Shown here piece by piece: positions 6,641 to 38,278 of a stretch of DNA of 38,278 nucleotides; within the stretch, counting starts at the first letter, position 1; each line of letters opens with the position of its first letter. Position numbers and translations under genes: made by a program. This DNA is from a virus (lineage: Duplodnaviria; Caudoviricetes). The notes beneath the pieces were generated by a model. The model did not search any database. It was not told the origin of the DNA and worked only from the letters and a program-made list of their open reading frames with translations. The stretch spans positions 1 through 38,278 of the IMG/VR virus record IMGVR_UViG_3300042210_000077. One strand, written 5' to 3'.

Positions 6641-6752
6641 AAAGATAGCAGCGTACATCTTGATGGGATTGCTGACTGCTTTGGCTGTCGTAGGCATTGC
6701 GATAATGATATACAATGTCATTTTTAACACCGAAAATATCACTTGGCCATGA
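6627..6752 (+). CDS. Small single-TM membrane protein (41 aa)
   Basis: MNKIKKIAAYILMGLLTALAVVGIAIMIYNVIF; stop overlaps the next ATG. Confidence 0.6.
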   Translation: MNKIKKIAAYILMGLLTALAVVGIAIMIYNVIFNTENITWP

Positions 6753-7057
6753 GAGTATATATAGCCGGCAAGGTGACGGGCGAACCGTTAGCGCAATGCA
6801 CGATGAAGTTTGGGCAAGCCCAAAAAATAATTGAAGGTAAAGGTTACGAGGCGGTCAACCCGCTCGCGCTGATCTACGATTACAAGGCAGGCCTCGGCAG
6901 AGAGGTAGAATGGAACGAGGCGATGAAAATATGCCTTATCAACCTACTCGCATGTGATGCCGTCTATGTGCTGAAAGACTGGGATAAAAGCCCCGGCGCG
7001 ATGTTAGAAGTATCGATCGCCGAAAAGTTAAAAATACAAATCATCCACGAAAAATGA
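6749..7057 (+). CDS. DUF4406-like protein (nucleoside 2-deoxyribosyltransferase-like fold)
   Basis: VYIAGKVTG, AVNP and CDAVYVLKDWDKSPGAMLE motifs. Confidence 0.85.
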   Translation: MRVYIAGKVTGEPLAQCTMKFGQAQKIIEGKGYEAVNPLALIYDYKAGLGREVEWNEAMKICLINLLACDAVYVLKDWDKSPGAMLEVSIAEKLKIQIIHEK

Positions 7058-34424: not shown

Positions 34425-34567
34425 GGGTAAAAGAACCCCCGACTTTGCCGCCTTCTAATCTCACTCGGAAGGCGAACAATAAAGGTGCACAAACACCAAG
34501 CCGAGGGCAATGCCTTTAGCTTTTGGTGTTTGTGCACCTATTTTTTTTGAGTGAGACGACAAATTTA
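34424..34567 (-). ncRNA. Putative structured antisense RNA / attenuator leader of the dam-TS operon
   Basis: 16-bp perfect stem 34483-34498/34524-34539; additional long-range pairings; minus-strand TAAATTTG -7 box at 34567-34560. Confidence 0.6.
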
Positions 34568-34582
34568 TTAAATAAAAACAAT

Positions 34583-35386
34583 ATGGAACTAAAACCAAGA
34601 ATGAAAACGCCTATCAGCTACTACGGCGGCAAGCAGATGCTTGCGAAGAAGATCATCAATGCCATCCCGGCGCATAACCTATATTGCGAGCCGTTTTTTG
34701 GCGGCGGCGCGGTGTTCTTTGCCAAGGAGCGCAGCAATGTGGAGGTGGTGAACGACACCAACAGCGAGCTAATCAACTTCTATCGTGTTGTGGTCACAGA
34801 CTTTGAGGCACTCAAAGCGATGACAGAAGTTACGCTGCACAGCAGGGATGCTTACAGGCAGGCCACGGTGATGTACAACCATCCGGACATGTTCAAGCCT
34901 GTGCAAAGAGCTTGGGCGGTTTGGGTATTAAGCAGCCAATCGTTTGCATCATCCTTGGAAAATAGTTGGGGCTTTTCGGTAGCAAGCTGCTCCACTCCAA
35001 AGAGGGTGATGAACAAGAAAGACAACTTCACAGACGAGCTGAAGCGCAGGCTTGACCTTTGCACTTTCGAGAATACCGATGCCATCGATGTCATTAAGCG
35101 TTTCGATCGTCCGGACAGCTTCTTTTATCTTGATCCGCCTTACTTCAACTCCGACTGCGGACATTATGATGGCTATAGCGCGCAGGACTTCACCAATCTA
35201 CTTGATGCCTTGGCGGGCATCAAAGGGAAGTTTCTGCTTAGCTCTTATCCGTCCAAACTTCTGAAGGAGTACATCGGCAGATACAATTGGCATTTTTGGA
35301 CTACTGAGAAGAAGGTCAGCGTAAACGCCAAAAGCGGCTATCTGAAGGCGAAAACAGAGTGTCTAACCTCAAACTATCAATTATGA
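34583..35386 (+). CDS. DNA adenine methyltransferase (Dam/D12 class)
   Basis: YYGGKQ, EPFFGGGAV, VVND and FYLDPPY motifs. Confidence 0.92.
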   Translation: MELKPRMKTPISYYGGKQMLAKKIINAIPAHNLYCEPFFGGGAVFFAKERSNVEVVNDTNSELINFYRVVVTDFEALKAMTEVTLHSRDAYRQATVMYNHPDMFKPVQRAWAVWVLSSQSFASSLENSWGFSVASCSTPKRVMNKKDNFTDELKRRLDLCTFENTDAIDVIKRFDRPDSFFYLDPPYFNSDCGHYDGYSAQDFTNLLDALAGIKGKFLLSSYPSKLLKEYIGRYNWHFWTTEKKVSVNAKSGYLKAKTECLTSNYQL

Positions 35387-36024
35387 ATAAGCATCATGAA
35401 ATTTTAAAGAAAATCATCGAAAAAGGCAAGATTCAACGCAACAAGAAAGGTTCAATCCGCTACCTGCTCAACCAAGTGATAAGCCTTAAGCCAATAGACC
35501 TGCTTGAGCTGTTTGAGGAACACGGTTTAGCCCGGAAGAAGCTGAAAGACGAGCTGAAGCTTTTCATGCTCGGAGAACGCTCCACGGAAGCCTATAGAGA
35601 GGTCGGCGTAACGTGGTGGGACTATTGCGGCCCTATTTTAGTGAACAGCTACCCAACCTACTTTGAACAGTTGCCAAAGCTGATAGAGAAGATCAATAAA
35701 GAGCGGCGTACTTCTAAGAACTACGTTCTCTTCCTTGGTGCCAACAATACCGAGACAAACCAACAGCCTTGCCTAAGCCTCATCCAATTCCAAATAGACA
35801 ACGGTAAGCTCGTTGTCACAGCCTATCAGCGTAGCTCTGATGCTAACTTGGGTTTGCCTTCCGACATCTACCACTTGTATCTCATTAGCAAGCAGATACA
35901 ACTACCCTTGAAGGGCATCACGCTGTTCATTGGCAACGTTCACATCTACGAGAACAACATTGAAGGAACTGAGGCGTTATTGAGTGGTGCGGAGGGGGTT
36001 AGATTCGCTTTAAACGTAGTCTAA
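35383..36024 (+). CDS. Thymidylate synthase-fold enzyme, short, with dCMP-type Asp
   Basis: QPC catalytic Cys, YQRSSDANLGLPSD and GNVHIYEN motifs; 213 aa; ATGA overlap with the methylase stop. Confidence 0.88.
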   Translation: MNKHHEILKKIIEKGKIQRNKKGSIRYLLNQVISLKPIDLLELFEEHGLARKKLKDELKLFMLGERSTEAYREVGVTWWDYCGPILVNSYPTYFEQLPKLIEKINKERRTSKNYVLFLGANNTETNQQPCLSLIQFQIDNGKLVVTAYQRSSDANLGLPSDIYHLYLISKQIQLPLKGITLFIGNVHIYENNIEGTEALLSGAEGVRFALNVV

Positions 36025-36025
36025 A

Positions 36026-36074
36026 TGTACAATTTGATTTTAGAAAGTGTATAATTTGATTTTTTGATTATACA
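36026..36074. repeat. Prophage right end: two transposase-binding repeats and terminal CA
   Basis: tgtacaatttgatttt (36026-36041) and tgtataatttgatttt (36048-36063), 22 bp apart, then ...attataCA. Confidence 0.75.
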
Positions 36075-38278
36075 GGCAAAATTTTATTTTTTTCTTCATC
36101 AATGTATGTGATTTCAAAATCGTGTCTGCCTAATAATTGAGTTGCAATATATAATCCAAGTCCTCTTCCTTGCATACCCTTAGTTGAGTAAAATGGTTCG
36201 AAAATATAAGGTTGGTCATCAGCCTTAATACCTGGGCCATTATCAGCAAAAATCACTTTTGAATTTTCTTTATCAATTTTTATTGCAATCTCCTTATTTT
36301 CAGTATCAATTGTTTTTAACCAATAAATTGAATTGTCCAAAAGGTTAATGAAGGTTTGAAGCAAAACTGCCTCTGTGCAATTGACTGTAAAATTTTTTCC
36401 AATTTCTTCAACAAGGAAAGCAATATTATTCTCCTCTATAACTCCCTCGTAATATCTCTTTACATCGTTAATCACCACAATGATTTTTAAATCTTTACTC
36501 TGTCTTTTTGAAGACCTGAATATCGGCTGTATACCTTCAATTTGACTTTCTATGTAATTAATTTGACTGTGCAGTTTTTTGAGATTAGCATTCAAAATTT
36601 TTGGGTCGTAATTTTTTGATTCTGTCAATTCAATTACAGAACCTAAAGTTGCGTTTGCTCTTTGCATCATCATCATTAAATCATGTGATGCTGCTTCAAC
36701 AGCAATACCAACTGCTGCCAAATCTTCCGTAATTTCCGCTCTGTCTTTAAGATACTTTTTTTCGCTGATGTAGTTTTTGTAAATAACATCAAAAACCTTC
36801 GCGCCTTTTGAATCTTTTCTTTCAGTTAAATATTCTCTGAAACTTTCAAATTGATTCTGTGTGACAGATTCTTTAATCAAAGTAATTTTATTTTTTGCCT
36901 CAACTCCAAATCTGTATTTCTTGAATTCGTTTAATAGTAACCCAAGTATTCCCTGAATGATTGATTTGAAATCTTCAAAAGCATTTCCTATTTCTAACAA
37001 TCCTTCTCTATTTGTTTTGTCTTTAAGATTTGGGTTGTTTTCTGTTGAAATACCAATGAAACCTACAGTCTGGTCATTACTCAAATAATCTCCGGCGCGT
37101 CCTGTACCTCTTAAAATATCAACTTCCAACCAATCATCAACTTTATCTCCATAAGGAAAAACTCTCAATCCATCCCTGTACAAATAAATTCTATTGTTCT
37201 TAATGATCCGTTTTTCGTCAGTAAGCAACTTATATTTTATCGGAGCCTGATTAGTTAAGTCGTAAATATGAAACTGAAAAGTGAACTCCCCACACTCAGG
37301 CAGTCGCTTCATGCTTCTTCTTCCAGTTGCACAAAATCTTTTTCTGAACTCTTTTATTTCTAACAACCTTTCAAGATTTAATTCAATTACTGAGCCGTTT
37401 ACTTTGTAAGAAATCTTATTTTGCCCATCATATTTCCCATCTGTAATCTTAACGGGGGCTTTTGTCTGAAGTATTGTTAGCTCATTAGTGTAATCTTTGT
37501 CGTCCTTAAATTGACTTTCACCATTAACCAAAATTTCACAAATAAAAGTGTCGGTTTTTTTTGTGGTTACAGGATTATTAAGTTTTGAAATATCTGAAAG
37601 AATTGTCTCAATTTTTTCAAATGACCATTCACCTCTTAGATTGGTTATTCTGATTAGCGTTCCATTTGACACTCTCTTTTCTAACTTGCCTTTTATTAAA
37701 ATATTCTTCTCTACTATATCAATCGGTTTTATTCTTTTTTCATACAAATATTCTATTTGGTCAAGGTATTTGGGTGTAGATTGTTTTTTATCATCCTGAA
37801 TTAGTTCATCATCAAAAGCAGAAAGATCATTGATAAGAAGTATTTCCTTTTCATTCTTCTCAACAGATTTTGTCGTGAGTTCAATCGTAGTTCCCAACTT
37901 GTAAACAGCAAACCGACCAATCCCTTTTTCACCTTGGATAATTCTTTTCTTCTTAGTTAAATTATCACCTTCTTGCTTCTGAATAAATTTGTTTGGAGTA
38001 GCTGGGTTTAACCAGACATTTTCAATTGTGTTAAATGACATCCCTATTCCGTCATCTTCAATTTCAATACAAGAGTTTTTGTTTTTGATAAGTGTATTTT
38101 CGTCCTTATCAACTGTGAAATTTTTGAACCTAATCTGCACCCAATTGGCATCTGCATCATAGGAATTCTTTATCAACTCAATTAGGGCAACTTTCTCATT
38201 TTTTATGAGTTGGTCTCCTATCATAGTTAGAAGCCGTGCATAAGCCCTCGGTTTTAATATTCCTTTATCGTCTGCCAT
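36068..38278 (-). CDS. Host GHKL (MORC/HSP90-like) ATPase fused to histidine kinase; C-terminus clipped by the prophage
   Basis: ELIKNSYDADA, DDGIGM and GEKGIGRF; then ASHDL, NLLDNS, DNGPGI and GRGLGL; the stop codon lies inside the prophage end. Confidence 0.85.
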   Translation of the reverse strand: MADDKGILKPRAYARLLTMIGDQLIKNEKVALIELIKNSYDADANWVQIRFKNFTVDKDENTLIKNKNSCIEIEDDGIGMSFNTIENVWLNPATPNKFIQKQEGDNLTKKKRIIQGEKGIGRFAVYKLGTTIELTTKSVEKNEKEILLINDLSAFDDELIQDDKKQSTPKYLDQIEYLYEKRIKPIDIVEKNILIKGKLEKRVSNGTLIRITNLRGEWSFEKIETILSDISKLNNPVTTKKTDTFICEILVNGESQFKDDKDYTNELTILQTKAPVKITDGKYDGQNKISYKVNGSVIELNLERLLEIKEFRKRFCATGRRSMKRLPECGEFTFQFHIYDLTNQAPIKYKLLTDEKRIIKNNRIYLYRDGLRVFPYGDKVDDWLEVDILRGTGRAGDYLSNDQTVGFIGISTENNPNLKDKTNREGLLEIGNAFEDFKSIIQGILGLLLNEFKKYRFGVEAKNKITLIKESVTQNQFESFREYLTERKDSKGAKVFDVIYKNYISEKKYLKDRAEITEDLAAVGIAVEAASHDLMMMMQRANATLGSVIELTESKNYDPKILNANLKKLHSQINYIESQIEGIQPIFRSSKRQSKDLKIIVVINDVKRYYEGVIEENNIAFLVEEIGKNFTVNCTEAVLLQTFINLLDNSIYWLKTIDTENKEIAIKIDKENSKVIFADNGPGIKADDQPYIFEPFYSTKGMQGRGLGLYIATQLLGRHDFEITYIDEEKNKILPV

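Follow-up and report, generated by a model that had tools for sequence, protein, structure and literature searches.

A predicted cytosine-type thymidylate synthase homologue and a shared leader RNA at the mom position of transposable phages of Bacteroidota

The right end of the prophage and its leader RNA

The stretch of DNA analysed here (the window) comprises positions 1 to 38,278 of the IMG/VR virus record IMGVR_UViG_3300042210_000077. Domain scans found in it the gene set of a Mu-like phage, including transposase, transposition ATPase, head, tail and amidase genes. Two genes of the plus strand lie near its right-hand side. The first (34583..35386) encodes a D12-class (Dam/DpnII-like) adenine DNA methyltransferase of 267 aa with an intact DPPY motif, which matches PF02086 above the cut-off (E 1.5e-25) and falls below the curated cut-off of TIGR00571 (Dam, GATC; 96.8 vs 114.85 bits). 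The second (35383..36024) encodes a short enzyme of the thymidylate synthase (TS) fold, which matches PF00303 above the cut-off (E 2.8e-18) and carries Asp161 at the position of Asn177 in E. coli ThyA; it is predicted to be a dCMP C5-(hydroxy)methylase. An earlier, sequence-only reading had described the ATGA overlap of the two genes (35383-35386), the GAC codon at 35863-35865 and a TS-like protein of 213 aa, and all three were found again. A longer start of this gene, at GTG 35359, was ruled out, as its relatives start at ATG.

Past the TS stop codon, 15-bp direct repeats at 36027 and 36049 (two matches were reached by 4 of 100 shuffles) are followed by GATTATACA. This segment (36027..36074, plus strand) is likely the right end of a transposable prophage, and its exact end is a prediction. 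In relatives, 48 of the 69 loci from genomes have the end motif GATTATA at most 300 nt from the cassette, against 92 of 1580 random windows with the motif. The repeats and the enrichment of the motif support the claim that the methylase and TS-like genes are the last two of the prophage. They occupy the mom position, as had also been proposed, and the slot can be seen directly: it holds the last gene or genes before a Mu-like right end, and sister phages have Mom or adenine methylases there, with true Mom genes behind the same leader RNA. Mom-position methylases of Mu-like phages are known in Hia5, Hin1523 and Nma1821, and their slot and that of Mu mom are likewise found at the right end, filled by unrelated DNA-modifying genes (PMC3299994). 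These enzymes are reported to act on adenine in DNA (PMC3299994), whereas the TS-like protein is predicted to be of cytosine type.

A HATPase/histidine-kinase-like host gene lies at 36068-38278 on the minus strand, and its N-terminus matches a type II restriction endonuclease model. Its stop codon is inside the predicted phage end, and the insertion may have clipped the gene. Positions 1-36069 of the window are strongly depleted in CTAG (0.05 of expected) and CCAG/CTGG (0.19), and GGCC and GATC occur at about half of expected.

A structured RNA element precedes the methylase gene (34425..34567, minus strand) and is predicted to be a small antisense RNA. It opens with the promoter motif TAAATTTG (34560..34567, minus strand), which points away from the cassette start and matches TAnnTTTG, the Bacteroidetes -7 promoter consensus. 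The motif is followed by a long hairpin with an outer stem (34556-34549 with 34466-34459) and an inner 17-bp perfect repeat (34483-34499/34523-34539), and by a 3' tail (34445-34436) able to form base pairs with the apical segment (34507-34498); a U-rich run comes after the tail. The 160 nt upstream of the Dam start fold strongly (z -6.1). Relatives have a common minus-strand design consisting of TAnnTTTG, the outer stem, the inner stem, an apical purine/pyrimidine segment, the complementary tail and U's. Double-sided changes occur in all nine tail pairs (9/9). Compared with a partner-swapped control, for which 53 rows were picked from 73 and relatedness was ignored in the statistic, the mean helix length is 10.0 vs 5.2 for the outer stem and 10.2 vs 7.1 for the tail. 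The promoter motif opens 52 of the 53 aligned rows, a count partly due to construction, since rows were chosen with a related motif. No Rfam 15 family reached its gathering score on the leader in the window and 18 loci, where the sole Rfam matches were RT-3/RT-17 RNAs of diversity-generating retroelements (DGRs) outside the leader.

A model of the leader matches the window with E 2.4e-8, the window row being among the model's own rows. With a sequence-only model, the leader was found ahead of the TS cassette at 75 of the 80 loci from genomes (17 of the 75 are training rows), ahead of Dam at 30 of its 80 loci and ahead of Mom at 26 of its 35, the Mom loci being in many cases near-identical. A copy directly before a Mom gene was met unprompted in a random phylum sample. 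Since that sample gave 4 matches in 151, one of which (L175) looks like chance, the leader is patchy per species representative. Five genomes hold one to three copies each, and by coordinates all seven distinct sites are at TS cassettes. In loci L082-L161, L174 and L176-L290, the leader stands upstream of TS, two methylase types, Mom and an 80-aa HTH/Mor-like ORF. As the same RNA precedes them all, TS, methylases and Mom can be regarded as interchangeable occupants of the slot. Asp177 phage enzymes and mom-position methylases are both known already; the leader RNA common to TS, Dam and Mom slots is newly described here. A literature search, with subscription journals mostly outside it, found neither papers on the TS family or the leader RNA nor a TS-fold occupant of the mom slot without a kinase. 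We infer that antisense transcription starts in the leader and that it would repress or delay the cassette.

The active site of the TS-like protein

The structure of the TS-like protein was predicted with confidence (pLDDT 95) and has the ThyA fold. Among solved structures, E. coli ThyA is nearest (TM about 0.85; chains of ThyA type reach Z about 21), and matches were also obtained with dCMP monooxygenase 9iqc (Z 19.6), MilA (18.6) and T4 gp42 (17.5); a viral fold search with the model gave generic TS matches only. Superposed on ThyA, the model fits to about 2.3 A and shows no added DNA-binding part. In the residue mapping, C130 corresponds to C146 of ThyA, R150 to R166, S151 to S167, D153 to D169, D161 to N177 and L131 to H147, and S111-K112-N113 corresponds to S125-R126-R127. 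The equivalents of Cys146, Glu58, Arg166, Asp169, His207 and Tyr209 are kept, whereas N177D, H147L, R126K, R127N, L143Q, the loss of W83 and the deletion of about 40 C-terminal residues separate the protein from ThyA. The mapping agrees with what the sequence-only reading had seen (catalytic Cys kept, Asp at N177, His147 lost, DSRR clamp changed), and the alignment and modelling against ThyA and T4 gp42 that it had proposed returned the ThyA fold with Asp at the 177/179 position.

Ten residues are invariant in 240 distinct core sequences of the family: E57, W79, Y90, C130, R150, S151, D153, D161, H187 and Y189. Leu131 at the His147 position and Gln127 at the Leu143 position of ThyA are likewise found in 240/240; K22, K53 and N113 are, with Q127, invariant family features, and K112 (the Arg126' position) is present in 239/240. 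Asp161 occurs in 18/18 deeper relatives as well as in the whole core, so it is not due to chance. The automatic alignment of the 240 sequences misplaces T4 gp42 and ThyA around positions 82-129, and mappings there were drawn from other comparisons. The median dN/dS of 0.047 over 231 pairs indicates strong purifying selection; it was obtained from the first 198 codons, ungapped, with synonymous sites saturated against the window, and the range of 0 to 1.98 takes in misregistered pairs. A pseudogene or drift was ruled out by the residue invariance and dN/dS.

Asp177 and the loss of His147 are reported to be the pair of positions most closely associated with modified-cytosine contigs (PMC8670742), and 5mdCMP was made by five of seven tested Asp177 enzymes (bioRxiv 2024.12.05.627091). 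Judged from its residues, the active site is probably of cytosine type, for which this comparison offers support. The claim that the gene is not for dTMP supply also held, in the sense that the protein is an unlikely source of dTMP: Asn177 occurs in 0/240 sequences, and the hosts own ThyA. All NCBIfam ThyA cut-offs are missed (TIGR03284, 50.7 vs 108.35; TIGR03283, 53.4 vs 174.55). A 5-hydroxy-dCMP synthase of the RB69 type, which is marked by D169N (PMC13326640), was rejected, as D153 (equivalent to D169) is found in 240/240, and the kept residue excludes the flavin hydroxylases.

The sequence-only reading had proposed that the enzyme acts on dCMP or possibly on DNA. The cytosine-type active site stood, whereas the loss of the RR clamp proved to be no pointer to DNA, because MilA, an active CMP/dCMP hydroxymethylase, has Lys at Arg126' (PMC5175136) and the His/Tyr pair is invariant here. 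H207 and Y209 are reported to bind the free 3'-OH (PMC5175136). As this pair (H187/Y189) is intact and invariant in the family, a mononucleotide substrate is favoured, and on the sequence evidence the clamp would favour free dCMP over DNA.

Comparison with known enzymes places the protein close to several families. MilA shares with it the Asp specificity residue and the Lys at Arg126', but has Ala in place of Ser167 and an extra C-terminal domain, and serves antibiotic synthesis; S151 (equivalent to Ser167) is found in all 240 sequences. The A176S change shifts the preference of MilA towards dCMP (PMC5175136), and MilA A176S has the same Lys-plus-Ser pair as the window protein. T4 gp42 is alike in Asp179, the Cys, the His/Tyr clamp, the lack of Trp83 and the short length, yet is only 13% identical and has an acidic residue (Asp) at position 143, where the window protein has Gln; Asp or Glu at the Leu143 position is typical of dCMP hydroxymethylases of T4 type (PMC13326640). 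The dCMP methylase of Xp12 (MT664984, QNN97214) has the ThyA fold, Asp177 and the loss of His147 in common with the window protein. Both have a non-acidic amide at position 143 (Asn in Xp12, Gln here) and keep Asp169. The Xp12 enzyme differs in keeping the RR clamp and in its 289 aa, against K/N and 213 aa, and its gene adjoins those of a dCMP deaminase and DHFR, whereas the window family has neither partner. Xp12 replaces all C (bioRxiv 2024.12.05.627091). The present family, unlike Xp12, is found in temperate transposable phages. The protein thus resembles a dCMP (hydroxy)methylase in its predicted working, yet departs from each of the named families in a defining feature.

The choice between methyl and hydroxymethyl is not readable from position 143, since Gln stands there in this family, Asp in T4 and Asn in the Xp12 methylase. 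Descent from ThyA and the conserved C-terminal tail would favour a methyl product. Methylation is slightly the better bet, hydroxymethylation may account for a good third of the expectation, and any other product would be surprising.

Spread of the family and its partners in the slot

A search for homologues gave at least 7998 matches, not all of which are necessarily members of the family, and the best 120 of them are nearly all 79-94% identical to the window protein. The gene was confirmed by scans in 342 stretches of viral and 254 of genome DNA, and 80 of each kind were kept. Named genome loci belong almost all to Bacteroidota, and the family is spread over Mu-like prophages of this phylum, Hankyphage included; in the phylum sample it was present in the seed genome only (1/401). 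Among isolated phages, it is Hankyphage and its kin that carry a close orthologue (21 records at 72%). In a tree, the family and its deeper metagenomic relatives form one clade (100/99) among ThyA-derived Asp177 proteins. T4 gp42 and Xp12 are on long, unplaced branches, that of gp42 being very long and not joined to the family.

The protein of Hankyphage (Bacteroides phage p00, BK010646; DAC76694) is 72% identical to that of the window and has the same Asp, right-end slot and leader RNA. Its gene order is ORF80-TS-methylase, whereas in the window Dam precedes TS, and its methylase (DAC76695), of a different subfamily, shares about 20% identity with the Dam of the window. The available text of PMC12135933 examines no function of DAC76694.

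The sequence-only reading had proposed that the TS-like enzyme, paired with m6A, would form a two-base anti-restriction system. A fixed Dam-TS module was not borne out by the survey of dam-TS co-occurrence that it had suggested. The window's Dam type adjoins TS in 8 of 160 TS loci, always with TS first, which is the opposite order, and 79 of 80 Dam loci are without TS (1/80 has it). TS was found in 0/35 Mom loci and in 0/35 whole records chosen for Dam or Mom. When the TS loci flanked by 1 kb or more on each side are considered (104 in all), another D12 adenine methylase accompanies TS in 69, the Dam type of the window in 4 and no methylase in 31; a D12 methylase is present in 20 of 36 TS-carrying virus records. 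The common partner methylase shares 36% identity with the gene that lies at the right end of Haemophilus phage SuMu. From these partner counts, the ATGA coupling is a local arrangement of two independent modules. The Dam-type methylase is a separate slot occupant and likely adds m6A.

Other layouts and decayed copies were also met. In L028:4706-9206, a TS gene of the family has an N6_N4 methylase gene upstream and terminase genes downstream, and the leader RNA gave no match there. A decayed TS gene at L173:1672-1750 is cut after about 22 codons, and the leader upstream of it is intact; another decayed copy (G001:C1:1374744-1375157) has stop codons inside the matched region. In the Bacteroidales members L081, L036, L043, L052 and L057, the cassette follows a DGR with an RT-3 RNA.

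The fate of the product

There is about an even chance that the TS-like protein modifies free dCMP at C5 and that host kinases and the host replisome bring the product into progeny DNA, where it takes the place of some cytosines. The ThyA-fold enzyme would add a folate-derived carbon, as methyl or hydroxymethyl, to C5 of dCMP; host Cmk/Ndk would phosphorylate the modified dCMP; and the host replisome would copy it into phage DNA at some cytosines, so that substitution would be partial. The modified cytosine would then probably shield phage DNA from restriction, and the predicted upstream antisense RNA would hold the cassette down or delay it. Mu replicative transposition uses the host replisome. 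No kinase, dCTPase or polymerase was found among 37 scanned proteins (34 from the window), nor by eye in the early ORFs, as the sequence-only reading had stated for the window, and across the family dNMP kinase (PF21448) and dCMP deaminase (PF00383) were each found in 0/36 TS-carrying virus records, most of them rated incomplete. T4, in contrast, has its own kinase and polymerase, and it encodes its own dCTPase. As no phage dNMP kinase or deaminase was present in the 36 records, host enzymes would have to incorporate the product. Five of five host genomes have an Asn-type ThyA and Cmk.

Incorporation is probably the weak step of this dCMP route, judging from related enzymes: phage 5hodCMP synthases without their kinase are reported to give trace modified C in E. 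coli DNA (PMC13326640). This finding counts both for the route and against it, and trace incorporation may give little protection. Against a route through the nucleotide pool, the genes that otherwise fill the slot work post-replicatively on DNA, and an enzyme of the pool that is made late is left with less time to act. Also counting against the explanation as a whole, the phage still strongly under-uses CTAG and CCAG/CTGG.

A first alternative, which is unlikely, keeps the dCMP chemistry and lets a host dCMP deaminase take the product, giving a side route to dTMP or, through hm-dUMP, hmU in DNA. A ComEB-like deaminase, scoring under the curated cut-off (E 1e-24 to 1e-28), is present in four of five hosts, which lack a Dcd above the cut-off, and this deaminase could drain the product to dTMP or hm-dUMP. 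Phages of Xp12 type are reported to make T by deaminating 5mdC nucleotides (bioRxiv 2024.12.05.627091). A DUF4406 gene, nucleoside deoxyribosyltransferase-like, is also more frequent in TS records (14/36) than in Dam/Mom records (4/35; Fisher p 0.013, relatedness being ignored in the statistic); the window has this early gene at 6749-7057 on the plus strand. Nevertheless, the hosts already own ThyA, a supply gene is not expected to trade places with Mom and methylases, and host G005 has the TS gene with Dcd and without a ComEB-like match.

A role in the lysogen is rather less to be expected: low constitutive modified dCMP would mark host DNA or disturb the pool and so hamper invading phages. 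Expression data of Hankyphage bear on this reading (PMC12135933). After repressor silencing, its TS orthologue rises about 10-fold at 6 h in normalised reads, which counts in favour of the main dCMP route, and the log2FC of ThyA is 1.5-1.8 vs about 4-5.5 for structural genes at 2-6 h (PMC12135933). Uninduced lysogens at 6 h gave 152-204 reads for ThyA, about ten times as many as for the methylase (9-16) and the tail fibre (17-21), which counts against the main route; hp44 and ThyA have high basal reads and a damped induction compared with late genes (PMC12135933). Late control with a delay would explain the pattern, as would a role in the lysogen, and transcription of the gene without induction leaves room for a part in defence or in the nucleotide pool. 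TS is moreover the sole cassette gene in 31 of the 104 loci. However, there is no PADLOC match, the basal reads may stem from transcription running on out of the DGR operon, mRNA is not protein, and the slot and leader are common to Mom.

It is improbable that the enzyme modifies cytosine in DNA after replication, as other mom-slot genes do. The slot, its post-replicative partners, the order of genes in L028, the K/N in place of R126/R127, the invariant K22, K53, Q127 and N113 and the lack of a kinase in 36 records speak for it. On the other side are the invariant H187/Y189 clamp and R150/S151, the close fit of the model to ThyA with nothing added for binding DNA, the work of MilA on mononucleotides with Lys at 126' (PMC5175136) and the lack of an obligate methylase partner to flip the base. 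Just as improbable is the wider proposal of a TS-fold enzyme taken off free nucleotides to modify DNA cytosine as a Mom replacement, switched by a pseudoknotted antisense RNA that would control Mom, two methylase types and TS in transposable phages of Bacteroidota, including Hankyphage.

A divergent but ordinary dUMP-to-dTMP synthase is scarcely credible; the best sequence and structure matches are to ThyA and not T4 gp42, and public annotations read thymidylate synthase, but the absence of Asn177 from the family, the lost His147, the missed NCBIfam cut-offs and the ThyA of the hosts all argue against it. Least credible is a MilA-like enzyme preferring ribo-CMP and changing RNA or a nucleotide signal. 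Lys at Arg126', shared with MilA and BcmA (PMC5175136), speaks for it, but Ser167 is kept, A176S moves MilA towards dCMP, and the gene context is that of DNA modification.

Cytosine-modifying TS homologues in the cited papers are from lytic phages with their own kinase and polymerase. If modification of free dCMP is what the protein does, it would be a one-gene form in temperate, host-replicated phages, with base modification at the pool level on host kinases alone, and the DNA packaged by Hankyphage, a very common gut phage annotated with a plain "thyA", may be modified. The shared leader RNA offers a way into the timing of DNA-modifying genes in phages of Bacteroidota and a marker for finding further mom-slot enzymes. 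Two copies of the leader (L043:5528-5673 vs L118:7532-7673) are identical except that the 22-nt loop, enclosed by perfect inverted repeats of 19 bp, is flipped, which may be either a DNA switch or a hairpin micro-inversion.
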